This document shows, one piece after another, positions 1-24,393 of a DNA stretch of 32,000 nucleotides. The notes under the pieces were generated by a model. That model did not search any database. It was not told where the DNA came from and saw only the letters and a program-made list of their open reading frames with translations. The stretch lies in the NCBI GenBank assembly GCA_008932965.1, contig WBXG01000014.1:1-32000 (forward strand), read 5' to 3'. Positions within the stretch are counted from its first letter, which is position 1. Each line of letters opens with the position of its first letter. The position numbers and the translations under genes were made by a program. The DNA is from Verrucomicrobiota bacterium. GTDB taxonomy: Bacteria; Verrucomicrobiota; Verrucomicrobiia; Chthoniobacterales; UBA6821.

Positions 1-129
1 GGGTAAGGCAGGCGAGTATTTTGATGCAGGGCTGTATGTGTACATACTGCCCAAATCAAAATGGGAGTCTAACGCAGCATCCATCTGACTTCCCGGCTTC
101 CGTAGTAGATCGGTAGGAAATATGCGGGC
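1..129 (+). mobile_element. MITE-like repeat, right-hand about 129 bp of a copy cut by the window edge
   Basis: Aligns base-for-base with 16587..16715 (the copy inside hisD), with about 7 mismatches by manual alignment. Ends '...GGAAATATGCGGGC' followed by TA-G (130..132). Confidence 0.85.
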
Positions 130-185
130 TAGATTCTTTTATTCTTGAATACTTAGGATACTATCCCTCTTATCACCTCATCATT

Positions 186-5130: not shown

Positions 5131-6846
5131 ATGAAGCCCTCCATTTATTTGTTAATCTCGCTTATCTCGGTAAATCTTGTTATTGCAGCATCTCCTACAA
5201 AAAATCCTAAAACTGTTGCCGATTTAGGTATTGAGATGATAAATGTGGGAGATCCAAAAAATCCCGAAGATCCTTCAAATCACTATGGTGCTGTAGCTGA
5301 AACATTTCAAATTAGTAAATACGACACCACTGCAGCACAATACTGTGTCTTTCTTAACAAAGTCGCTAAGCACTCAGATCCCTATCAGCTATACGATGAA
5401 AGAATGAATAGTGATGAGAACGTCGCTAGCATTGTACGTACAGGAGATGCAACAACCGGCTATACTTACAGCGTTAAATCACCTGAAACTGCGCAGCTTC
5501 CTATTGTCTATCTCACGTGGTTCTCTTCAGCTCGCTATTGCAACTGGATAAACAATAGTGTGATTGCAGGACACCTACTCGAAGGATCAGAAGATGCCTC
5601 TACAACAGAAAAAGGAGCCTACGATTTTACCGTTCCTGTAAAAGTTGTGACAAGCAAGTATACTGATTTTCTCAATAACATGGCATCAACTGAAAGTTCT
5701 ATAAATCCTAGTGATAGCCTCCATAAAAAATTATTTGAGGATGAGAAAAGCCTCCACGATATTATTAATTGTACTAAAGGAGATAACGGAAAATATGTAT
5801 ATTCGATCAAACAAAGTAATACCTCAGCAGACATACCAGACCATGTCGAACTTAGCTGGACTTCTGCAGCACGTTTTAGCAATTGGAAGTACAATGTAGA
5901 GACTACCAAAAATTCTCATCATTACTCAAAAGAAGAACTCACGGAGAGAGGGCTTTTTACTATTGCTGACGGTATTAAGGATAATACTGGTGATGCAGAT
6001 GTAGTCCCGACTGACTATGCTAAGGTTACTCCTGGAGCAAAATATTTTCTTCCTACTGAAAACCAATGGTACAAGGCAGCCTACTTTGCTAGAAAACATT
6101 ATGGGCCTGGTTTTAGTTCAGATTATTATAAATATCCAACAAGCATGGATCTTGCTCCAGTTAATCAACTAGAGGGCACACAGATGGTAGCCAAAACATC
6201 TGCATTTTCATGGTTGACCGATGATCCTAATGACGCATTAACTACTGAAAAAGTTGATAAAGGCAATAGCGCTAACTACTACATTGATGATATGGTCGTA
6301 GATAAAAAATTCACTACAGGAGATAAAAAACCACACCTTACACCAGTAGGATATTTTTCTAAAACAACTTCTCCATATGGAGTATTTGATATGGCTGGCA
6401 ATGTGTCACAATGGATCAGTGGTACAGCAGGGCACTATGTAACTTTCAGCTATGACGAGGATGGTAAAATCACGAAAAGTGATTTAGCTAAAATAGATAA
6501 TAATGGTCAGCCTCTTCTGGTTGATGGCGTTACAGCTGACAAAACAATAATAGATGCTGGGGGGCACACCATGAAAAAAGATGCCCAGGATCATATCCTT
6601 TTACAATGGCAGTATGCAGGGGTCACACGTCCCATTCGAGGTGGTGGTTGGGGGAATGAGGGACAGTGCCCAACAGGTAATGATCAATTTGCAAAAGTTA
6701 CAATAATGGTCATCGATGGATCTGTGAAACGTGACTATATTGGATTCCGAATTGCTGCCCCTGCTCTTGCTACAATTAAAGATGAACAAATGGGCTCTTC
6801 ACAAAAAGCTCTTGAATCTACCACGGGTCCAAAACAATGGTGGTAA
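5131..6846 (+). CDS. Secreted FGE-sulfatase (SUMF1/formylglycine-generating-enzyme-like) domain protein
   Basis: 571-aa ORF with an N-terminal signal-like peptide 'MKPSIYLLISLISVNLVIAAS'. FGE-sulfatase fold motifs are 'VYLTWFSSARYCNW', 'LPTENQWYKAAY', 'SPYGVFDMAGNVSQW', 'RGGGW' and 'IGFRIA'. The domain is split by long insertions, including an internal duplication. Confidence 0.75.
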   Translation: MKPSIYLLISLISVNLVIAASPTKNPKTVADLGIEMINVGDPKNPEDPSNHYGAVAETFQISKYDTTAAQYCVFLNKVAKHSDPYQLYDERMNSDENVASIVRTGDATTGYTYSVKSPETAQLPIVYLTWFSSARYCNWINNSVIAGHLLEGSEDASTTEKGAYDFTVPVKVVTSKYTDFLNNMASTESSINPSDSLHKKLFEDEKSLHDIINCTKGDNGKYVYSIKQSNTSADIPDHVELSWTSAARFSNWKYNVETTKNSHHYSKEELTERGLFTIADGIKDNTGDADVVPTDYAKVTPGAKYFLPTENQWYKAAYFARKHYGPGFSSDYYKYPTSMDLAPVNQLEGTQMVAKTSAFSWLTDDPNDALTTEKVDKGNSANYYIDDMVVDKKFTTGDKKPHLTPVGYFSKTTSPYGVFDMAGNVSQWISGTAGHYVTFSYDEDGKITKSDLAKIDNNGQPLLVDGVTADKTIIDAGGHTMKKDAQDHILLQWQYAGVTRPIRGGGWGNEGQCPTGNDQFAKVTIMVIDGSVKRDYIGFRIAAPALATIKDEQMGSSQKALESTTGPKQWW

Positions 6847-6996: not shown

Positions 6997-7171
6997 CTTC
7001 CCTATTTCACTCTAATCGTGACTAGGAGGCTGATGAAGCTGTAGGGTATGGCAAGTAATGAAAGTTTAACAACTGATGTGCGGATACACGCTGCACGAGG
7101 AAAACTTCGAGCTCAACAAATCTTCTATCAAGCTTCCTGGTATCCTTAGGTGATCGGCATGAAATAACTCC
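6997..7171 (+). mobile_element. Degenerate MITE-like repeat copy
   Basis: 'CTTCCCTATTTCACTCTAATCGTGACTAGGAGGCTGATGAAGCTGTAGGG...' parallels 'GCCCGGATATTTCATACTGATCGTGACGAGGAGGCCGCGGAGGCTGATGGGG...'. The right end '...CTTCCTGGTATCCTTAGGTGATCGGCATGAAATAACTCC-TA-G' parallels '...CTTCCCGGCTTCCGTAGGTGATCGTGATGAAATATGCGGGT-TA'. Heavily mutated. Confidence 0.6.
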
Positions 7172-7777: not shown

Positions 7778-8048
7778 ACCCGGATATTTCAAACTGGTTC
7801 GTCGCGAGGCGCTGCGAATCCTGATGCAGACACCACCGGCGGTCGGGAGACCGCGATGGAGACTGCCCTGGCTTTAAGGGGGCAGCCCTGAAAGGGCGAG
7901 ACGAGCGGGAGCGAGCGAGTCAACGCAGATGAGTATTTTGACGCAAGGCTGTTTGATTACATACTACCCAAGAAAGACTCCGAGCTTGGGCGAAGTATCC
8001 ATCATGGCTTCCCAGTCTCCGAATGTAATCGGCATGAAATATACGGGC
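7778..8048 (+). mobile_element. MITE-like repeat, long (271 bp) variant with an extra GC-rich internal module
   Basis: Left end 'TA|ACCCGGATATTTCAAACTGG', right end 'GGCATGAAATATACGGGC|TAG'. The right about 120 bp is homologous to 1..129. An extra module of about 100 bp lies at 7827..7925. TA flanks both sides. Confidence 0.85.
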
Positions 8049-9523
8049 TAGGCAGACTCTTCGGGACGGTAATCCCTCGTCTCAAAGCGAGTATATTCCT
8101 TAAGAAATGTTAACGGGACCTCACCGGTCGGTCCATTACGCTGCTTGGCAATGATGAGTTCAGCTTCACCCTCTTTTTCACTACGAAGAGCATCATCTTT
8201 TTCAAAATAAGCAGAACGATAAAGCAGACCCACGAGATCAGCATCTTGCTCAATTGAGCCAGACTCACGTAGATCAGATATACGTGGTTTCCCATCACTC
8301 CTTTTTTCTGATTCACGATTCAGCTGTGCTAAAACAATCACAGGAATTGATAGCTCTTTTGCCAATGCTTTGATTCCAGCTGAAATTTCAGCTATTTCAA
8401 TTTGACGATTATCTTGAGCTCTCTTGGAGTTGGATCTTAGCAACTGAAGGTAATCAATAATAATAAGGCTAAGATCGTGACGATCCTTCAATCTGCGTGC
8501 TTTTGCCCTTAGCTCCAAAATACTGAGTCCAGCAGTATCATCGATATAAATTTTACTTTTGGATAAAGCATCAGCGGCTCGAGAAAGATTTTTCATATCT
8601 TTACTTCCCATGAACCCATCACGCACTTTTTTTAAATCTACTTTGGCACGTGAACACAGAACTCGTTGAACAAGTTGTTGTGAGCTCATTTCCAGGCTAA
8701 AAATCCCTACTGATTTTTGAAGATCGATTGCTACATGCTCTGCAATATTCATTGCTAGGGCCGTTTTACCCATTGATGGACGAGCAGCAATCACAATCAT
8801 TTCACTAGCATGCATTCCATCTGTAAGCTGATCTAGGAAAGAAAATCCAGTAGAGAGGCCAGTAAGGGCACCTTTATTTTTGTGCATGCCTTCGATGGCA
8901 TCAATCGCCAAAAGCACCTGTTCTTTAATTTCAGGAAGAGCATTACTCACTCGAGATTCACTGATCTTAAAAATATTACTTTCAATAGTATCAACTAGCG
9001 TTTTGACATCACCTTGTTCTTCGTAACATTGAGCTGCTGCACTCGTGCATACAGCAATCATACTCCGTAGAAGAAATTTCTCCTGAACAATCTCTAGGTA
9101 ATATTCAATATTGGCTGCAGTCGGAATAAATTGAATTAAATGAGCCAATGCTGCAGGACCACCTACACCATCAAGAAGTTTTTGATCGGCTAGTGCCTGG
9201 GTCACCGTAATGAGATCAATCGGTTTTAATTCCTTCCATAGACCAACTAAGACGCTGTAGATGGTGGAGTGAGCAGGTTGATGAAAATAATTTTCATCAA
9301 TTTTTTCAATACAGAGAACTAACACCTCTCGAGGTGATAGAAGAATAGAACAAAGCACCCCCATTTCCGCATCAGGACTTGATGGTAGAGCACGATAGGA
9401 CTCAGGGAGGATTTTCTTAGCAACAAACTTGTTATCTCCTGCTTCTACCTTTTTTAGAACAGAGGGAGATTTTTTTCTTCCGCTAAATGCTCCCGCATCT
9501 GTATTAGAAGAAACGGACTCCAT
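8048..9523 (-). CDS. dnaB: Replicative DNA helicase DnaB
   Basis: 491-aa ORF. Walker A 'ARPSMGKTA', 'IIIDYLQL', 'QLNRESE', and N-terminal domain 'PSSPDAEMGVLCSILL'. It has an N-terminal extension of about 40 aa. The stop codon TAG (8048..8050) lies in the CTAG at the MITE junction. Confidence 0.95.
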   Translation of the reverse strand: MESVSSNTDAGAFSGRKKSPSVLKKVEAGDNKFVAKKILPESYRALPSSPDAEMGVLCSILLSPREVLVLCIEKIDENYFHQPAHSTIYSVLVGLWKELKPIDLITVTQALADQKLLDGVGGPAALAHLIQFIPTAANIEYYLEIVQEKFLLRSMIAVCTSAAAQCYEEQGDVKTLVDTIESNIFKISESRVSNALPEIKEQVLLAIDAIEGMHKNKGALTGLSTGFSFLDQLTDGMHASEMIVIAARPSMGKTALAMNIAEHVAIDLQKSVGIFSLEMSSQQLVQRVLCSRAKVDLKKVRDGFMGSKDMKNLSRAADALSKSKIYIDDTAGLSILELRAKARRLKDRHDLSLIIIDYLQLLRSNSKRAQDNRQIEIAEISAGIKALAKELSIPVIVLAQLNRESEKRSDGKPRISDLRESGSIEQDADLVGLLYRSAYFEKDDALRSEKEGEAELIIAKQRNGPTGEVPLTFLKEYTRFETRDYRPEESA

Positions 9524-10228: not shown

Positions 10229-11011
10229 TTATTGAATTTTCTTGAGGTGTCGTTTCTTCAAACATTCTATGACATCAAAAAAATCACTATTGCACGCTTG
10301 CAAAAGCACAAGCATGTGAAAGAGCAGATCTGCTGTTTCATTAATGAGCTCGTGAGGTTTTTTACCTACGGCCGCAATAACGGTTTCTACTGCTTCTTCT
10401 CCCACTTTTTGAGCACAACGCTCTCTCCCCTCATTCAACAATTGAGTTGTATACCGAATCGGATCCGCCCCAGCCGTAGCACGCTCGGCAATGGTGGTGA
10501 TTAAGGTTTTTATAAATCCAAGATCCGTAGAGACCGGAGGCTGAAAGCAACTGGAATATCCCAAATGACAGGCGGGTCCTTTTGGCAAGACGAGCACAAG
10601 CAAAACATCATGATCACAATCCGTTCGAATAGATTGCACCTCCATACTATTGCCTGAGGTATCACCTTTGCGCCAAAGGGATTGTTTGCTACGACTCAAG
10701 AAGGTGACTTTTCGTGTGCTTACAGTTTGAACATACGCTTCTTGATTCATGTATCCTAACATTAAGACATCTCCTGTTTGTGCATGCTGAACAATTGCTG
10801 GAAGCAATCCTTTCATTTTTTCCCAATCTAATAGACTACTTTCACATTCTAGTGCAGCTGTGGTGAACTCAGAGGAACCAGCATGTCTCTCTTCGAGCAC
10901 CTCTTGTTCACTATGGGAATAAGCTTCTAAATTTCCCTCTTTTATATCAGCGGTAGCAACGTTGAAACTAGGTTCTCGTTGATCGACTATTGGCTTAGAT
11001 ATAATTTTCAT
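10229..11011 (-). CDS. hisIE: Bifunctional phosphoribosyl-AMP cyclohydrolase / phosphoribosyl-ATP pyrophosphatase
   Basis: 260-aa ORF. The HisI part is 'LLPAIVQHAQTGDVLMLGYMNQEA...SRSKQSLWRKGDTSGN...DCDHDVLL'. The HisE part is 'AQKVGEEAVETVIAA...ETADLLFHMLVLL'. It has a non-homologous N-terminal extension of about 60 aa, and an internal start (M66) is possible. Confidence 0.88.
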   Translation of the reverse strand: MKIISKPIVDQREPSFNVATADIKEGNLEAYSHSEQEVLEERHAGSSEFTTAALECESSLLDWEKMKGLLPAIVQHAQTGDVLMLGYMNQEAYVQTVSTRKVTFLSRSKQSLWRKGDTSGNSMEVQSIRTDCDHDVLLVLVLPKGPACHLGYSSCFQPPVSTDLGFIKTLITTIAERATAGADPIRYTTQLLNEGRERCAQKVGEEAVETVIAAVGKKPHELINETADLLFHMLVLLQACNSDFFDVIECLKKRHLKKIQ

Positions 11012-14187: not shown

Positions 14188-15414
14188 TTAAAAATCAGGT
14201 TGAAACGAACGAAGAGCTAAAAGCAGAGCCTCATTTTGAAGGCGATCACCTACTGTGATTCTCAACTTATCGTCCAGGAGCGGATTCCCGTTATAATGAC
14301 GCACTAGAATGTTGTTCTTCTCCAACCAGCTACTCACGCTGTGCGCCTGTTTTGTTTTGAGAAAAATAAAATTAGCCTCACTGGGGTAAACTTTTTCGAC
14401 CCAGGAAAAAGTTCTTAAAGAAACCTGTAGTTCTTCACGAAACATCACAATATTTTCAACTGCTGTTTTAATCCAAGATGCATTTTTTAAAACGCGAAGG
14501 GCCCTTTCTATAACGAGACTAGAAAATGTAAAAGGAGGAGTAATACTCCTGAGGGCTTGTATTAAAGGAGCAGGACCTATCACACTGCCCAGTCGCAAGC
14601 CTGCTAAACCATAAGCCTTGGAGAGTGTTCTTAATACAAGCAGATTATCAAATGAGTTGATGAGTGATGTTGCACTTACCGTCTCAGTAGAGTTTGAATA
14701 TCGGTTCTGAGCAAATTCCACATAAGCTTCATCCACAACAATGATAGCGCGCCTCTCATATTTTTGACACAAACTAGCAATCGTTTCTAAATCGATAAGA
14801 TTACCCGTAGGATTATTGGGACTACAAAGCATGATGAGCTTACAATGCGGTTGCCAGAGCTGATCTAGGAGCTCGAGGTCTAGACTGAAATCCGTATCTT
14901 TGAGAGGACAGCAAATAACATTTGCCTGCTGCATCCGTGCATAAAAAGCGTACATCAAGAAAGCCGGAGGAAATTGCATGATACTATCGATGCCCGGTTG
15001 CAAAAAAAGACGCATGATAAAATCGATTCCCTCATCAGCACCTCGTGTCAGCAGGAGATTTTCAGGGTTTACGTAATAGATCTCGGCAAGCGCCTGTTCT
15101 AATTGTGACTGAGGTTCTAAGTCAGGGTAGCAGTTTAAAAACCTATTCTCACAGTCTACTGACGTAGCGAAGGGCTTTGTTGCTTCAGTGCTCGCTCCAT
15201 CGAGTACATTAAGCGTATTCTGTCGCTGTGCGCTCGATATTCCTTGCCCTTGATCAGCCACAGTAACCTTGAAAACAGGTTCTAGAAAAACAGAAAACTC
15301 CTCGGTGGGTATCCATGGTGATTCATTAAGGTGCAAACGAGTTTTCCCATGAGTAGGGGTAGTAATGTAGGTTGTCATGCCCACTAACTCAGGCCGTACT
15401 AAGTCAATACTCAT
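14188..15414 (-). CDS. hisC: Histidinol-phosphate aminotransferase, carrying an extra N-proximal insertion of about 45 aa
   Basis: 408-aa ORF. 'LNESPW', 'LNCYPD', '[16 protein letters not shown]', 'SPNNPTGN' and the PLP-lysine motif '[15 protein letters not shown]'. The start shares one nucleotide with the hisD stop. Confidence 0.93.
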
Positions 15415-16892
15415 TATATTTTCTCCATGACTTGCAAGCGTTGCGAAATTGCATTGGCGTGTGCATCGAGACCTTCGAGCATAGCAAGGGTGCAGGCTGA
15501 TTTCCCTAACGTCCTTAATCCTTCCTCAGAGATAGATTGAACACACATCGATTTCATAAAATCCCCAGTTGATAAGCCGCTACGCTGACGTGCAAATCCA
15601 TATGTGGGTAGGATATGATTGCTGCCGGTAACGTAATCACCCAATGTTTCTGCAGCCCATGAGCCTAAGAAAATAGTTCCTGCAGCAGTAATGTGATCTA
15701 CCCAACTTGCAGCATCCACACATTGAATCATGAGATGCTCTGGTCCATAACGATTCACAATTTCAATCATTACGGATCGATCTTGGCAAATGAGGATAGC
15801 GCTATGTTGTAACGATTTTTTGATGAATTCTTGTCTCGTGAGATGTTGATATTGGTCGACTAAGGCCTGATGAACCGCTTCTGCAAAGAGAGGGTCTTCG
15901 CACAGTAGAAAAACTTGAGAATCGGCCCCATGCTCCGCCTGAGCTAGTAGATCAGCAGCCACAAAAAGAGGATTTGCTGAGGCATCTGCTAGGATCATCA
16001 CTTCGGAGGGACCTGCAGGCATGTCGATAGCTGCACCCTCAGGATCACTAGAAACCTGAACCTTTGCTTCGGTAACATAGGCATTACCGGGACCAAAAAT
16101 CTTATCTACTTTTGGGATGCTTTTTGTTCCATAAGCCATGGCAGCAATTGCTTGAGCCCCTCCAATTTTATAAACTTGTTTGATATCACACAAACGAGCA
16201 ACTACTAGGAGTACTGGATCAATTACTCCTTCTGCATTAGGTGGTGTGCACATGACACGCATAGGACACCCTGCAACCTTTGCTGGGAGTGCCTGCATGA
16301 GCAACGAAGAGACTAAAGGAGTCTTATTACCACCCGGAACATAGAAGCCTACTCGGCTAATAGGTCGATAAATCCGCTCTAGAAGGACTCCTGGAGCAGT
16401 TGAAATATGCTTATTCTCAGGCAGTGTTTCTTGATGGAAGTGGGTGATGTTTTTCACTGCTGTCATCACGGCTTCCATGGCCTGCGGAGAAATAGTAGCT
16501 GCAGCAATCTCCTTGGGAGAGACTTGCAGGCTCGCTAGCCCGGATATTTCATACTGATCGTGACGAGGAGGCCGCGGAGGCTGATGGGGTAAGGCAGGCG
16601 AGCATTTTGATGCAGGGCTGTATGTGTCCCTACTGCTCAAATCAAAATGTGAGTCTAACGCAGCATCCATCTGACTTCCCGGCTTCCGTAGTAGATCAGT
16701 ATGAAATATGCGGGCTAGGTCGATACCATCGAGCTCACGTGTCCATCGTAAGAGAGCTACGTCTCCCTCTTGTTGGACCGAGTGAATAATCTCAGTGACA
16801 CGTTTTTTAGCATCATGGTGCTGGGGAGGCCTTACTAAAAGCTCTTCTCTTCTGGAAGCAGAGAGGATCTGCCAGTTTTCAATACGCAACAT
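15414..16892 (-). CDS. hisD: Histidinol dehydrogenase interrupted in-frame by a 178-bp MITE (plus TA), adding 60 codons
   Basis: 492-aa ORF. HisD motifs are 'YVPGG', 'IGGAQAIAAMAYGT', 'GPGNAYVTEAK', 'AGPSEV', 'LAQAEHG' and 'GDYVTGSNHILPT'. Residues 60-119 are encoded by the repeat element. Removing them restores a canonical 'RELDGIDLA-SLQVSPKEIAAA' junction and a length of about 432 aa. Confidence 0.93.
   Translation of the reverse strand: MLRIENWQILSASRREELLVRPPQHHDAKKRVTEIIHSVQQEGDVALLRWTRELDGIDLARIFHTDLLRKPGSQMDAALDSHFDLSSRDTYSPASKCSPALPHQPPRPPRHDQYEISGLASLQVSPKEIAAATISPQAMEAVMTAVKNITHFHQETLPENKHISTAPGVLLERIYRPISRVGFYVPGGNKTPLVSSLLMQALPAKVAGCPMRVMCTPPNAEGVIDPVLLVVARLCDIKQVYKIGGAQAIAAMAYGTKSIPKVDKIFGPGNAYVTEAKVQVSSDPEGAAIDMPAGPSEVMILADASANPLFVAADLLAQAEHGADSQVFLLCEDPLFAEAVHQALVDQYQHLTRQEFIKKSLQHSAILICQDRSVMIEIVNRYGPEHLMIQCVDAASWVDHITAAGTIFLGSWAAETLGDYVTGSNHILPTYGFARQRSGLSTGDFMKSMCVQSISEEGLRTLGKSACTLAMLEGLDAHANAISQRLQVMEKI
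16538..16715 (+). mobile_element. MITE-like repeat, full 178-bp copy inserted within the hisD coding sequence
   Basis: 'C-TA|GCCCGGATATTTCATACTGATCGTGACG ... GTAGATCAGTATGAAATATGCGGGC|TA-G'. It has a terminal inverted repeat of about 22 bp, and TA (CTAG) on both flanks. It is about 95% identical to 1..129 over the shared part. Confidence 0.9.
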
Positions 16893-16919
16893 CTCGTGAA
16901 AGGTAAAAATTAGACTTCA

Positions 16920-17801
16920 TCACTCTAATATTTTTTCAATGGGCAAAATTAAAATAGAACTAGCCCCTAAGGATTGAATCGTTTCTAACGTTTTCCAAAA
17001 AACTCCTTCTGTAGAGACGACGTGAACTACCACTTTATCAGGATCTCCTGGAAGTGGAAGAACGGTTGGTGATTCAACACCAGGGAGCTGTTCGCAAATT
17101 TCCTTCAAGGCGCTTTTAGGAGCGTGAAAGGCAATATATTTACGCTTTGCAGCATGCTGCACAGCACTAATACGACGTGCCAGCATGTCGAATAAATCGT
17201 GTTGTTCAGGTGTGATAGCATGCTCTCCTCGAATCAGGCTTGCTTGACTCTCCAAAACTGTTTCCACAGGAATGAGTTTATTTTCTTCTAGGGTTTGACC
17301 ACTAGAAACCAAATCGCAGATAGCATCTGCCATCCCCATACGTGGAGCCACCTCCACAGAGCCTGAAAGAATCAGCGTTGGAGCAGAAACATGTTGTTTT
17401 TTTAAATACTCCGTTAAAAGCAGAGGATAACTTGTGGCAATGCGTTTTCCTTCTAAGCTGCTTGGACCCTTATAATTCATCCCTTCTGGTACAGCAATCA
17501 CCAAGCGACAATGAGCATTATCTAGCGTTAAAATACTTTGATATTTTTTATCAGGAAAGCGGAGTGATGCCTCCAGCAACACGTTAGTGCCAATAATCCC
17601 CCCATCACACAAACCATCAAAAACTAACGTAGGAATGTCATCATCACGCACAAAGAGAAGATCAATTGGGAAATTATTCACATGCGTTAGCAAGGCACTT
17701 TCTTTGACATGAAACTGAAGTCCACAACGCTCTAGAAGAGCTATTGAATCTTGAGCAAGGCGTCCTTTTTTTTGAAGAGCCAAGCGAAGTCGAGAGGGCA
17801 T
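16920..17801 (-). CDS. hisG: ATP phosphoribosyltransferase, long form with C-terminal regulatory domain
   Basis: 293-aa ORF. 'LRLALQKKGRL', 'DLLFVRDDDIPTLV', 'DAICDLVSSGQTLEENKL', and a C-terminal HisG-C domain. It is the first gene of the his operon. Confidence 0.94.
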   Translation of the reverse strand: MPSRLRLALQKKGRLAQDSIALLERCGLQFHVKESALLTHVNNFPIDLLFVRDDDIPTLVFDGLCDGGIIGTNVLLEASLRFPDKKYQSILTLDNAHCRLVIAVPEGMNYKGPSSLEGKRIATSYPLLLTEYLKKQHVSAPTLILSGSVEVAPRMGMADAICDLVSSGQTLEENKLIPVETVLESQASLIRGEHAITPEQHDLFDMLARRISAVQHAAKRKYIAFHAPKSALKEICEQLPGVESPTVLPLPGDPDKVVVHVVSTEGVFWKTLETIQSLGASSILILPIEKILE

Positions 17802-17879
17802 AAAATAGAAATTAGAATTTTTACTAGCGATAGAAGAGTTGATTCTTAAAGGAGAGTGATAGCTTGAGTCAATAGACTA

Positions 17880-18022
17880 ACCATACTATTTCATACTGAT
17901 TGTGACGAGTAGGTCGCGAAGGCTGTATGAGTCCCTACTTCCCGAGGAAGACTTCGAGCTTGGGCGCAACATCCACCCTTGCTTCCCGGCTTCTGCAGGT
18001 AATTGGTATGAAATATGCGAGC
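17880..18022 (+). mobile_element. MITE-like repeat, short (143 bp) variant between the uvrA stop and the hisG upstream region
   Basis: 'AC-TA|ACCATACTATTTCATACTGATTGTGACGAGTAGG ... CTTCCCGGCTTCTGCAGGTAATTGGTATGAAATATGCGAGC|TA-G'. It shares the internal 'GAGGAAGACTTCGAGCTTGGGCG' block with copies at 7778 and 20617. Confidence 0.85.
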
Positions 18023-18037
18023 TAGCAGGTGTGATTA

Positions 18038-20590: not shown

Positions 20591-20616
20591 AACATCACAA
20601 ATCCTTACCTAAACTA

Positions 20617-20795
20617 ACCCGGATATTTCATGCTAATGGTGACGAGGAGGCCGCGAAGGTTGATAGAGGAGGGCACGCGATCAAGTCTGACGAGATAGGC
20701 GTTTGTACACACTGCCCAAGGAAGACTTCGAATCCAACGCTCTATTCATAGAGCTTTGCACATGCCTTTATAAATTGAGTGTGAAATATCCGGTA
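20617..20795 (+). mobile_element. MITE-like repeat, 179-bp copy between tRNA-Ser and the uvrA start
   Basis: 'AC-TA|ACCCGGATATTTCATGCTAATGGTGACGAGGAGGCCGCGAAGG ... GAGTGTGAAATATCCGGT(A)|TA-G'. The right boundary is ambiguous by 1-2 nt. It starts 26 nt upstream of the uvrA ATG. Confidence 0.85.
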
Positions 20796-20829
20796 TAGCG
20801 GAGCAGTCGCATTCATGAGTAACAAAAAC

Positions 20830-20916
20830 TGGTGAGGGAGGGATTCGAACCCTCGGTACCTTTTACAGTACGGCGCTTTAGCAAAGCGCTGCTTTCGACC
20901 ACTCAGCCACCTCACC
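20830..20916 (-). tRNA. tRNA-Ser (anticodon GCU), class II with long variable arm
   Basis: The reverse complement reads GGTGAGG-T-GGCTGAGTGGTCGAAAGC-A-GCGCT-TTGCTAA-AGCGC-CGTACTGTAAAAGGTAC-CGAGG-GTTCGAATC-CCTC(C)-CCTCACC-A. It has a 7-bp acceptor stem, an anticodon loop with GCT, a long variable arm and a GTTCGAATC T-loop. No CCA is encoded. Confidence 0.9.
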
Positions 20917-21047: not shown

Positions 21048-22097
21048 ATGATGACTTCAATGCCTCCTGTTAAGACAACTGCGAAACAACTCCTTATTAC
21101 CGGATCTACCGGCTTTGTAGGACGCAATTTGCTGATTCACGCTCTGAAGGATCCGAGCTGGTCTCAAATCATTCTTCCTGTCAGAAATCCAAAGAAACTT
21201 CTTGAACAACTCCACCAGGATCATCTCCATGGGTATTTAGATCGCTTGCACCTCTGCACCGTGAGCAACAATACATGGAACTTAGAAGGGATCGAGGATC
21301 TTGACCTAGCGATTCACTGTGCTGGACTCACCTTCTCTCGTGACCGAGATCCTTATTTTGCAACACATGTAGAGGGCTCTCTCCATCTGCTAGAATCACT
21401 CCCAAAGCACTCGCGTCTCCTTGTACTCTCCTCCCAATCAGCAGCTGGACCGAGCTCTAAGATTATCCCAATACGTAGAGAAAACCATCTTGAAAAACCC
21501 CTCACCTGGTATGGAAAATCGAAATTAGCAATGGAAAAAAATCTCTCGCTGCTCGCCTATGAACGGCTTCTTATCCTGCGTCCTCCTATGATTCTTGGCC
21601 CCCGTGATACGGCGACAGTTCCCCTTTTTAACATGGCTAAGGGACGAGTACGTTTTAAACCTGGTTTTAAAAAAAAGGAATATAGTTGGATTGCGGTCGA
21701 TGACTTATGTGATGCAATACTTCTTGCTGCAAGGAACGATTGGAGCTCCCTTCCCCAGCGTTGTTATTTTTTAGCACATCCAAAAACATTGACTGATGTC
21801 GCATTGCTTAAGACAACAGCTGAAATAATTCATGCAAGTGGTATTACTCTTCCTTTACCTCATGCTCTGATCCAATGCATTTCAAGAGTAGCTGATCTGG
21901 TACCAACGCTGAGAGAAGCCCTTCCTAGCTTGGGTCGTGATCGGGTTAAAGAAATATTTGAACAGCGTTGGGTGATTGATGGAAAACCTTTCGAACGCGA
22001 TTTTCAGTGGAAAGCTCAAAAAGATCTTCGTGAGACTTTACAAGAAACAGCTGTTTGGTTAGAGAGAAACAGAAGTTCGAAGAGTAAATCGCAATAG
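21048..22097 (+). CDS. NAD(P)-dependent epimerase/dehydratase family (extended SDR) protein
   Basis: 349-aa ORF. Rossmann motif 'LLITGSTGFVGRNLL' and catalytic 'YGKSK' (YxxxK). The substrate cannot be determined from sequence. Confidence 0.8.
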   Translation: MMTSMPPVKTTAKQLLITGSTGFVGRNLLIHALKDPSWSQIILPVRNPKKLLEQLHQDHLHGYLDRLHLCTVSNNTWNLEGIEDLDLAIHCAGLTFSRDRDPYFATHVEGSLHLLESLPKHSRLLVLSSQSAAGPSSKIIPIRRENHLEKPLTWYGKSKLAMEKNLSLLAYERLLILRPPMILGPRDTATVPLFNMAKGRVRFKPGFKKKEYSWIAVDDLCDAILLAARNDWSSLPQRCYFLAHPKTLTDVALLKTTAEIIHASGITLPLPHALIQCISRVADLVPTLREALPSLGRDRVKEIFEQRWVIDGKPFERDFQWKAQKDLRETLQETAVWLERNRSSKSKSQ

Positions 22098-22162
22098 GAT
22101 TCTAACACAGCATCCATCTGAATTCCCGGCTTCCGTAGGTGATCGTGATGAAATATGCGGGT
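22098..22162 (+). mobile_element. MITE-like repeat, right-half fragment filling the gap between two convergent stop codons
   Basis: 'GATTCTAACACAGCATCCATCTGAATTCCCGGCTTCCGTAGGTGATCGTGATGAAATATGCGGGT|TA' matches the right 65 bp of 16538..16715. It starts immediately after the epimerase TAG, and its last base plus the flanking TA form the TAA stop of the 743-aa ORF. Confidence 0.85.
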
Positions 22163-24393
22163 TAAGGAAACGCTGGAACCGTGTAGGGAATATCACCTGC
22201 ATAGGGATAAAGATTGATGACATAAAGTCCACTTGAAGAGCCGGTAGGGTCGCCCCCTTTTTCTTTTGCGTTAAGCACTCGTTGATAAGCTTCGCAAGCA
22301 ATTCTTGTGACTCTTGCTTGCATTTCTGGATGATCTTCATAGTGACGCATGACGCAATAGATAGCTTTTAATTCAGCCAGTCGTTCTTGGACGTAAGGTT
22401 CTATGGGATCACTAGAAGGACTTGAATTTTTGAGTTTTTGATAATGATTTTTTATATCACTGAGTACATTTTGATAACTCAGCTCTTGGGTGGTTACTCT
22501 GGGGCCAGGCTTATAGAGCAATTGACCATCTGATTGTGATTGGCTTTCCAATTTATTTGCATAGGTGATTTCGGCACGGCTTTTAGAGTTTAAGTAGCGA
22601 GCACTTAAATAAACAGTAAATTGTCTAGGCATCGAAGCAGAAGTAACGACTCGATTTACTATTTTAAAAGTACGACTTTCAAAACCGACCCCTGAAGTGA
22701 TTTCCTCGTTGAGTTGGTCTTCATTCTCTACGCTATCTTGGGCTTGATGCGCTATTTCAGGAAGATTGTCGGCGCTTGTCATTCCCAATAAATGTCGGGT
22801 GTCATCGACTAAATGAACCACATCATGAGTTAAATCATTACCTGTTCCATGTAACGCAGCCTCTGAAGCATAATAACCAGATAAAAGAAATAATTCATGG
22901 CTGAGTGCTTCTGAATAGGGAATCCCAGTCGCAGCAACGGCATGATCGATCACACCACCCACAAGAGTATTCTGAATACTTTCACCTAGCATGGCACCAA
23001 CAGTTGTATGATATGCAATATTAGCACCAGCATTGGCACCCGTGAGAGCATTCACATCACTCTGGGGGCTCAAGGCCTCATCAACCTTAGCATCCCAATA
23101 AGTTGTTACATAACCAACACCCCAACCAGCAGCCACCCCTGCAATGATACCAATCCCGAGAGCTCCAACCGGAAGTAATGCCGTGCCAAGGGCTCCTGTT
23201 GCCAGTGGTGCTCCCAAGTGTGCTACAGCAGTAGTAACTGCAGGGCCAACTGAGTAGCCTTTTAAAAGCATTCCTATTTTGATGAGATCTCCAGGGGTTT
23301 TTAGTAACTCTTTTCCAGTTTCAGTCAGTTTCTTTAAACAGCGTTGTTCCTCAAGTGATAGTTTTTCAAATTTTTCCTCTGCCTCACATCTTACACGATT
23401 TTCTCTGTGTTCGCTCAGTATACCCGATTGCAAAGGAATGAGTTCAGCCACGCGATCCAAACCTGCGTAACAGTCATCGATCATCGCTTTTGCTTGACGA
23501 TAGCCTAGAGGAGAGTTCGGCTCGTGTTGAAGAAAGGGTTGAGGGAGTTGATCTCCAAATTGAGCTTGAATGGCTTGAGAAAATCTTTTCCAGATCGCTC
23601 GTGACTGATCTTCCGTTGGTGGTTCTTGTTGAAAAAGTATTTTATTCTCTTCATCTGTTAGCAAAAAACCATCCTCCTCTTGGCATAAAATATCAGTAAA
23701 AGGCTTCAGTAAATGGTGAGCATTCTCTCTAGCGCTCTGAGCAAGAACATAAGTCCCCTCCAGCATCTCCTCTCTGGCTTGGGGATCTAGATTTTTAATA
23801 TCTTCAAACGCATCACTCAGTGAATGAGCTACCTCATTAAAAGCTGGAGGTTCCTGATTTGAGGAGTGGCTAGAAATCTGCCCAACTTGCTCTGCCTCTC
23901 TTGTTTTGATTTCTTGAAAAGCTTGGTAAGCCTCTAAGGCAACTCTAGAAATCTCATTTTTGACTTTTTCTAAGTTCTCCGCTGAAGAGTTGTTAGGAAT
24001 CCCTACCTTGATTCTAATAGCTTCCTCGTGAAATTTTTTAAGATTGTTGTTAGGTGAACGATCACTTCTGGAATTTTTTTGAAGCTCCTTATCCATGATT
24101 TGTATTGCTTTGATTTTGGTTATAGCAAGGCTCCTAATTGCCTCACGATCATCATTCTCTTGTTCACCATTGTGATGATTGTAATAGGAGCGATTGGTAT
24201 ATCCAAACCAACTACCCAAAAAGGAGAGACGACTCCTTTCCGTTTCTTTCACTTTTCCTGAGGAATTATTGGGCGATACTTGCTTCAATGATCCAGAAGA
24301 ACTGACAGTGGCATTATCATTAGATTTAGAGGTAAAGGGATAAAAACTAGGTAAACTAGAAATAATCCGCGAAAATAAATTTTGTGCGCTCAT
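22162..24393 (-). CDS. Hypothetical 743-aa protein with a Ser/Asn-rich N-terminus, helical middle region and central glycine-zipper hydrophobic hairpin
   Basis: Long uninterrupted ORF with no family motif that I recognise. Residues about 372-433 read 'IGMLLKGYSVGPAVTTAVAHLGAPLATGALGTALLPVGALGIGIIAGVAAGWGVGYVTTYW'. There is no classical signal peptide. Confidence 0.7.
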   Translation of the reverse strand: MSAQNLFSRIISSLPSFYPFTSKSNDNATVSSSGSLKQVSPNNSSGKVKETERSRLSFLGSWFGYTNRSYYNHHNGEQENDDREAIRSLAITKIKAIQIMDKELQKNSRSDRSPNNNLKKFHEEAIRIKVGIPNNSSAENLEKVKNEISRVALEAYQAFQEIKTREAEQVGQISSHSSNQEPPAFNEVAHSLSDAFEDIKNLDPQAREEMLEGTYVLAQSARENAHHLLKPFTDILCQEEDGFLLTDEENKILFQQEPPTEDQSRAIWKRFSQAIQAQFGDQLPQPFLQHEPNSPLGYRQAKAMIDDCYAGLDRVAELIPLQSGILSEHRENRVRCEAEEKFEKLSLEEQRCLKKLTETGKELLKTPGDLIKIGMLLKGYSVGPAVTTAVAHLGAPLATGALGTALLPVGALGIGIIAGVAAGWGVGYVTTYWDAKVDEALSPQSDVNALTGANAGANIAYHTTVGAMLGESIQNTLVGGVIDHAVAATGIPYSEALSHELFLLSGYYASEAALHGTGNDLTHDVVHLVDDTRHLLGMTSADNLPEIAHQAQDSVENEDQLNEEITSGVGFESRTFKIVNRVVTSASMPRQFTVYLSARYLNSKSRAEITYANKLESQSQSDGQLLYKPGPRVTTQELSYQNVLSDIKNHYQKLKNSSPSSDPIEPYVQERLAELKAIYCVMRHYEDHPEMQARVTRIACEAYQRVLNAKEKGGDPTGSSSGLYVINLYPYAGDIPYTVPAFP

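Follow-up and report, generated by a model that had tools for sequence, protein, structure and literature searches.

A miniature inverted-repeat element in the reading frame of hisD in a Verrucomicrobiota bacterium, probably translated as a 60-residue loop

The DNA analyzed here, hereafter the window, comprises 32,000 nucleotides of contig WBXG01000014.1 (assembly GCA_008932965.1) from a Verrucomicrobiota bacterium of the Chthoniobacterales. Nine histidine biosynthesis genes (hisGDCBHAFIE) lie intact and adjacent in it, and one of them, hisD, carries in its reading frame a segment belonging to a dispersed family of short repeats with terminal inverted repeats and duplicated target sites. An earlier note, written from the letters of this DNA alone, had described hisD as a frame open for 492 codons with its motifs kept, and had proposed that a mobile element lies inside it. 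The list of open reading frames (ORFs), the HisD equivalog profile and an alignment of 62 HisD sequences confirmed the open frame and the motifs, and the membership of the segment in the dispersed family bore out the proposal. In a profile search, the window protein scored 484.7 bits on TIGR00069 (PF00815), for which the cutoff is 243.8, and the nearest solved structure was E. coli HisD, 1K75 (E 2.5e-111). The features of the locus are as follows; the element, a miniature inverted-repeat transposable element (MITE), is given without a strand.

15414..16892, minus strand: hisD ORF, 492 codons, open throughout, carrying the insertion
16539..16714: MITE core of 176 bp, reading CCCGGATATTTCAT...ATGAAATATGCGGG on the plus strand
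16538..16715: the same MITE, 178 bp, if TA is the duplicated target
16535..16559: left terminal inverted repeat with its CTAG flank (16535-16538), 25 nt, 96% complementary
16694..16718: right terminal inverted repeat with its CTAG flank (16715-16718), 25 nt

The two CTAG flanks represent a target-site duplication, of either TA or CTAG. Counting both flanks, the copy spans 16535..16718, and it adds a net 180 bp to the ORF. CTAGC is present at both borders, as the earlier note had seen. DNA alignment with a related contig (L002) revealed the corresponding empty site: the filled site reads GAC-CTAG-(176 bp)-CTAG-CGAGCC and the empty site GAC-TTAG-CGAGCC, a net difference of 180 bp. At the protein level, the closest database entry (P0001) was a 492-aa HisD with 99% identity, and further homologues were 433-441 aa long. 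A clean 60-column gap was found in all of the aligned orthologues, among them P0002 (88% identical outside the gap), P0003, P0004 and the HisDs of Legionella. The expectation that close relatives would lack the 60 residues was therefore satisfied twice, by the protein gap and by the empty DNA site. Owing to the repeated Leu-Ala pair, three numberings of the insert are equivalent (codons 59-118, 60-119 or 61-120); the earlier assignment to codons 60-119 was right about the 60 codons, and the peptide that had been bracketed as the insert corresponds to residues 61-120.

These comparisons indicate that the 60-codon segment is an insertion and not an ancestral part of HisD. The opposite view, that the 60 residues are an ancestral HisD segment or a chimera of assembly, has in its favor the a priori possibility that attaches to metagenome assemblies and nothing more. 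The segment was absent from all 61 other aligned HisD sequences. It has terminal inverted repeats and a duplicated target, and dozens of further copies lie between genes. In addition, the HisD cluster contained five insert-bearing sequences of 492 aa from NCBI, JGI and ENA assemblies. The same junctions were present in these independent assemblies, which derive from different samples and pipelines, and this argues against an assembly error or a chimera, the concern that the earlier note had raised. The probability of this alternative is close to negligible.

Several side observations concern the HisD homologues. In the lineage of P0003, a partial MITE copy lies directly upstream of the insert-free hisD (L003 2233-2328, L004 20-86 and L005 16-110), and the HisD called there is 441 aa long with an N-terminal extension of 8-9 residues. 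The best named homologues of the window HisD were from Legionella spp. (54-65% identity), although the recorded sources are Verrucomicrobiota and Chthoniobacterales; this could reflect horizontal transfer or mislabelled bins. A CesT-type secretion chaperone is also encoded on L132. The sources of the HisD cluster, and of the spurious ORFs described below, were Verrucomicrobia, Verrucomicrobiae and Chthoniobacterales metagenome-assembled genomes (MAGs) from freshwater metagenomes.

When 16500-16750 was compared with the rest of the window by blastn, 16587-16718 matched 1-132 with 94.7% identity over 132 nt (E 4e-56), in agreement with the identity of about 95% to positions 1..129 given in the earlier note, and weaker matches were found at about ten further places. 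Searches with nhmmer detected at least seven MITE copies in the window along with smaller fragments. Related genomes, of which about 200 kb was searched, gave about 45 copies or fragments. Besides the hisD copy, the window contains the following, again without strand:

1..132: intergenic copy, truncated by the start of the window, 94.7% identical to the hisD copy
7000..7166: diverged intergenic copy (nhmmer E 3e-37)
7906..8051: intergenic copy, ending at 8047 without its flank, whose right CTAG flank (8048-8051) holds the TAG stop codon of dnaB (8048-8050)
17878..18025: intergenic copy between hisG and uvrA, internally deleted (nhmmer)
20614..20798: intergenic copy upstream of uvrA, beside a tRNA-Ser gene (nhmmer)
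22087..22164: partial copy between convergent genes, ending at 22161 without its flank, whose TTAA flank (22162-22165) holds the TAA stop codon of a 743-aa ORF (22162-22164)

The tRNA-Ser(GCT) gene (20830-20916, minus strand) lies 32 bp from the copy at 20614-20798. It was the only Rfam family found in the window; no intron, ribozyme or other Rfam family matched the element.

The hisD element is about 68% self-complementary and has no transposase gene, its longest open frames being the 61-codon read-through frames. Its small size, terminal inverted repeats, duplicated target (as seen in the filled and empty sites) and dispersed copies identify it, at the level of sequence, as a MITE. No match to it was obtained by blastn in a plasmid collection. 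A 29-nt pattern from its interior was found at only three loci in a metagenome scan and was thus too specific for a survey of the family. In related MAGs, ORFs annotated on intergenic copies of the MITE account for dozens of 'hypothetical proteins' of 40-107 aa.

The ends of the element led to a much larger group. A scan of a genome collection with its right end, GAAATATNCGGGCTAG, gave at least the matches listed, from many phyla. Among these, elements with paired ends fell into a long class of about 1560-1626 bp and a short class of 131-257 bp, and nearly all of them had CTAG on both sides. Members of the long class were L024 225-1791, L094 220-3358 (two tandem copies), L043 5450-7014, L063 3334-4893 and L045 1863-3488. 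The long elements (about 1567 bp) encode transposases of 443-456 aa, and the two that were scanned (L024 and L063) matched PF13701 (DDE_Tnp_1_4) with E values of about 1e-165. Transposase-encoding elements occurred in Opitutales, Thiodiazotropha, Alphaproteobacteria and other taxa, and full-length IS1380-family copies were present in other Verrucomicrobiota MAGs (L024, L094 and L043).

The hisD element and the long elements have in common their 14-nt termini, which start with CC (CCCGGATATTTCAT), and their CTAG flanks; unlike the long elements, the hisD element lacks a transposase gene, and its interior is unrelated to theirs. Because the termini and flanks are shared with elements that encode a PF13701 transposase, the hisD element is assigned to the MITEs derived from the IS1380 family, and an insertion sequence (IS) of this family presumably mobilized it into a target of the form (C/T)TA(G/A), or YTAR. 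The earlier note had spoken of a MITE targeting TA or CTAG. The MITE and the CTAG/YTAR target held, but the parent is of the IS1380 family and not a TA-targeting mariner/IS630 element.

The same termini and CTAG flanks were also found on many short elements in L015-L125, whose hosts include Verrucomicrobiota, Burkholderiales, Desulfobacterota, Endozoicomonas, Planctomycetota, Acidobacteriota and other taxa. On their sequences, these elements seem to form one very widespread IS/MITE superfamily, in which the ends are conserved and the interiors unrelated.

The flanks bear on the length of the target duplication. CTAG and TTAA flanks are uninformative because they are palindromic. The pairs TTAG/TTAG (twice) and CTAA/CTAA favor a 4-bp duplication, whereas CTAA/TTAG (once) fits a duplication of TA. 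In the pair TTAG/CTAA (twice) the pattern is palindromic, and either model needs a target other than CTAG or a later mutation. Members of the IS1380 family in ISfinder have direct repeats of 4-5 bp. For IS1247, a 5-bp direct repeat has been reported (PMC3281130, Table 2). An element of 176 bp with a 4-bp CTAG duplication therefore fits the hisD data as well as the 178 bp plus TA proposed in the earlier note, and it suits the IS1380 family better. The total of 180 bp stands under either length.

How such an insertion can keep a reading frame open follows from the target and from the element itself. A YTAR site can occur within an ORF in two frames only, because xxY-TAR would be a stop codon, and one of the two is permissive. 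After removal of the insert, 11 of the 15 YTAR sites in hisD were in the permissive frame. The hisD copy of the MITE was free of stop codons in two of its six frames, that is, in the CTA-G frame in each orientation, and contained 4-8 stops in each of the other four. The intergenic 176-bp copies were likewise stop-free in the YTA-R frame in both orientations. We rejected openness in both orientations as a significant property, since with about 68% self-complementarity the frames are not independent. MITE flanks coincide with stop codons in dnaB (TAG) and in the 743-aa ORF (TAA), as a preference for YTAR targets would explain. The frame of hisD would thus have been preserved through three properties: the element and its duplication together add 180 bp, which is divisible by three; the target is read CTA-G (Leu, then G..); and that frame meets no stop codon within the element.

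Three points (a unit of 180 bp with its duplication, YTAR sites confined to two ORF frames and a YTA-R frame open in both orientations even in intergenic copies) lie behind the idea that the 176-bp family is pre-adapted for landing in genes, beyond merely being tolerated there; the second repeat family described below, which was seen in genes only, is a further point. We consider this idea doubtful. If true, meaning that selection had acted on the element for coding compatibility, it would provide a system resembling the Rickettsia palindromic elements (RPEs) with a known transposase family, in which the spread and survival of such repeats in genes become experimentally testable.

The MITE recurs in other genes. 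Two of the approximately 45 copies or fragments lay inside long conserved ORFs, one being that in hisD and the other that in aroB of L131. The copy in aroB runs in the opposite direction, has TTAA/TTAG flanks and reads LTRIFHTNRNEEAAKADG...EIFGL; solved dehydroquinate (DHQ) synthases are about 50 residues shorter at this position. The aroB product at L131 10321-11251 is recorded as 492 aa, whereas solved DHQ synthases have about 360-390 aa. A single MITE insertion of 60 aa explains only part of this excess, and the N-terminal part, which lies beyond the L131 locus, may contain another insertion.

An exhaustive phmmer search of 1.84 billion representative sequences with the 61-aa peptide of the hisD frame gave 121 matches. 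Most were short spurious ORFs on intergenic copies. Longer hosts among them were:

P0257: D-hexose-6-phosphate mutarotase, peptide at 106-166, splitting the Aldose_epim domain
P0259: type I dehydroquinase (aroD), peptide at 19-79
P0258: shikimate kinase (aroK), peptide at the N-terminus
P0261: phosphopantetheinyl transferase (PPTase), peptide at the C-terminus
P0284: DR2241 / Fer4_23 protein, peptide between domains
P0286: SixA-like phosphatase, peptide at residues 13-77
Several larger uncharacterized proteins: peptide internal

Two of these insertions were located at the DNA level, that in the mutarotase gene at L135 973-1154 with TTAA/TTAA flanks and that in aroD at L136 3056-3237 with TTAT/TTAA flanks. 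Insert-bearing alleles of the mutarotase and of HisD were present in the same MAGs (KAB2642889.1 with KAB2644367.1, and MDH4469513.1 with MDH4469944.1). Word-indexed peptide searches with queries of about 60 aa in both orientations yielded no protein longer than 107 aa; this result is uninformative, because the positive controls (HisD P0001 and AroB of L131) were missed as well. Judged from the peptide matches and the loci, at least four further enzyme genes in this lineage carry the same MITE in their reading frame, consistent with the RPE-like behavior that the earlier note had suggested.

The hisD gene that bears the insert looks functional. Of the zinc-binding and catalytic positions, Q318, E320, H321, E385, D419 and H478 were invariant among the 62 HisD sequences and H386 was nearly so (>=90%); the alignment with 1K75 gave Q259, H262, E326, H327, D360 and H419 as E. 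coli equivalents. The motifs QAEHG, PEHL and GDY and H478 (window numbering) were kept. The ratio of non-synonymous to synonymous substitution rates (dN/dS) for hisD was 0.12 against L002/L003, 0.08 against L006 and 0.10 against L001. The last of these contigs is 98.6% identical to the window over 17.9 kb and has an identical hisD insert, so that the differences between the two hisD genes arose after the insertion. There were 12 such substitutions, nine synonymous and three non-synonymous. Small as these numbers are, they point in the direction of purifying selection on hisD, also after the insertion.

An AlphaFold2 model based on the 62-sequence alignment had a mean predicted confidence (pLDDT) of 77.8, with values below 50 for residues 69-119 and of 91-96 for the flanking blocks. 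The model superimposed on 1K75_A with a template-modelling (TM) score of 0.90, normalized to the target; in the alignment with 1K75, the insertion point corresponds to E. coli residues 60/61. The insert is thus predicted to be a low-confidence loop at a position compatible with the HisD fold.

The reading that we favor, with a probability of about 0.78, is that a MITE mobilized in trans by an IS1380-family transposase lies in frame in hisD and is read through as a 60-residue loop. According to this reading, the DDE transposase would recognize the 14-nt termini CCCGGATATTTCAT and move the 176-bp MITE in trans, which would integrate at (C/T)TAG at codon 59/60 of hisD with duplication of the target. 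Transcription and translation would most likely proceed straight through the insert. The product would be a HisD with a proline-rich disordered loop of 60 residues between helix 44-55 and strand 120-123, the remaining fold and the active site being unaffected. The insertion would persist as a nearly neutral one without a function of its own, and selection would have purged insertions that fell in another frame or at a site less able to accommodate them. Mobilization in trans, translation through the insert, enzyme activity and neutrality are steps that we infer from the sequences.

Several observations weigh against this reading. No autonomous IS1380 copy was found in the window or in the short related contigs of the lineage. 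The mRNA of the insert was predicted to fold into a hairpin of -75.5 kcal/mol (z = -7.3), which could hinder translation of hisD. Furthermore, one copy of this HisD in GenBank (KAB2644367.1; P0333) is annotated as 418 aa long with its start at Met75, inside the element; it is identical to the window HisD from Met75 on, starts MDAALDSHF... and drops the first 58 conserved residues. The signal of selection after the insertion is thin because the two alleles with the insert differ by no more than 12 substitutions, and a second hisD may exist elsewhere in the genome.

The annotated start and the hairpin suggest a split gene, in which ribosomes from the native start could be stopped by the strong hairpin, translation begins at Met75 within the element, HisD lacks its first 58 native residues and the upstream codons are a relic. 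Against this, all 58 upstream codons were intact and in frame in all alleles and were 85-90% identical to those of orthologues. A scan of 16300-17000 gave neither promoter-like nor terminator-like sites. The N-terminal strand and helices were confidently placed in the AlphaFold2 model, and hisD begins 27 bp after hisG in the operon, so that the native start is the natural one. We therefore regard a start at Met75 as unlikely.

It is also conceivable that hisD is a young pseudogene whose frame is still open for lack of time, histidine being obtained from the environment, a host or a second gene copy. A lineage with many repeats and several inserted genes has the appearance of one under relaxed selection, and the count of substitutions since the split from L001 would suit this view. 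It is opposed by the composition of that count (nine synonymous to three non-synonymous, dN/dS 0.10), which also speaks to the earlier note's caution about a pseudogene, and by the intact state of all nine his genes. The five independent 492-aa alleles had neither a frameshift nor a stop codon, and other genes of essential pathways retain similar insertions in several samples. A pseudogene is decidedly unlikely on this evidence.

Removal of the element after transcription was considered as well: the RNA could be processed at the hairpin and religated, or ribosomes could bypass the element from one of the duplicated CTA-GC codons to the other, and the mature protein would lack the 60 residues. 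The identical CTAGC flanks and the very stable hairpin superficially resemble take-off and landing sites. Known bypassing, as in T4 gene 60, requires a stop codon after the take-off codon; the putative take-off codon in hisD is not followed by one, and the lack of an Rfam intron or ribozyme match argues against processing. Removal would also give no reason for the intragenic copies to be multiples of three in length and stop-free in the frame of the host gene, and all of them are. This explanation is very unlikely.

A second repeat family occurs in the same operon and behaves alike:

15142..15288, minus strand: family-2 repeat in hisC, a 49-aa in-frame insertion with termini AACCTGT(A/T)TTCA
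10823..10977, minus strand: family-2 repeat in the hisIE ORF, within its 5' 63 codons (E 1e-7; 4e-11 in L001)

HisC (14188-15414) is 408 aa long, compared with 351 aa in relatives, because of this 49-aa insertion (residues 43-91) and one of 8 aa (AQNRYSNS). The hisC element is 147 bp long with inverted termini and is homologous to a segment that adds 47 aa in frame to uvrA of L006 (4561-4718; nhmmer E 6.6e-13) and lies in the opposite orientation to the hisC copy. The copy in hisIE has the same frame and orientation as that in hisC, with the peptide EPSFNVATADIKEG..., and accounts for an N-terminal extension of about 45 aa in the hisIE ORF (10229-11011) that L006 lacks. No intergenic copy of family 2 was found in the window and the related DNA examined, where it was seen in hisC, hisIE and uvrA only. 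The insertions in hisC and hisIE are thus the same phenomenon as that in hisD, produced by a separate repeat family. Elsewhere in the window, residues 46-443 (398 residues) of a 571-aa FGE-sulfatase-domain protein (5131-6846) matched positions 25-204 (180 positions) of a 255-position profile, which suggests that this protein holds large insertions.

To our knowledge, no transposase partner of the RPEs has been identified. RPEs are short (100-180 bp), multicopy palindromic repeats, some of which lie in frame in unrelated housekeeping genes (Ogata et al. 2000 Science 290:347; PMC186582; PMC10969869). The elements described here resemble them in being palindromic repeats in frame in unrelated genes, in their predicted compatibility with the protein fold and in the presence of more than one family per genome. 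They differ in their host, a freshwater Verrucomicrobiota bacterium and not Rickettsia, and in that the hisD element has canonical terminal inverted repeats, a YTAR duplication and an identifiable IS1380 parent. Judged by its host taxon and its IS1380-type termini, the hisD element does not belong to the Rickettsia RPE families, although it works like an RPE.

In-frame MITEs have been reported for ERIC, BOX, QMITE1 and Anabaena elements (reviewed in PMC10969869), so that the phenomenon is of a known kind and the statement in the earlier note that it is rare elsewhere was too strong. QMITE1 of Coxiella burnetii is 300-400 bp long with variable direct repeats of 2-3 nt (PMC5896051). Like the hisD element, these are non-autonomous elements with terminal inverted repeats that sometimes form in-frame ORF fusions or extensions, whereas the hisD family has another parent and another target and forms clean internal insertions in conserved enzymes with empty sites in orthologues. 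In the mitochondria of Nematomorpha, inverted repeats are translated within essential genes as coding palindromes (PMC6649704). Here too long inverted repeats are embedded in, and translated with, essential genes, but those are perfect organellar hairpins of which both arms encode conserved protein, and there is no dispersed transposon family with target duplications. In the open-access literature searched, we found no paper linking IS1380, MITEs and CTAG, nor one on MITEs inside Verrucomicrobiota genes. What is new here is the identification of the parent IS family, the recurrence in other genes and a second family that behaves alike.

One practical consequence is a trap for annotation, as illustrated by the start of HisD called inside the repeat in GenBank and by the spurious proteins called on intergenic copies. 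More broadly, the RPE phenomenon extends to a freshwater Verrucomicrobiota lineage of the free-living type, in which three genes of one his operon carry such segments. The recognizable IS1380 parent with its CTAG/YTAR target, for which no counterpart is known among the RPEs, offers a mechanistic handle. The finding, of moderate interest, is that of a tractable RPE-like system outside Rickettsia, in which it can be asked if such a family has become adapted to coding regions or if selection simply filters its insertions.

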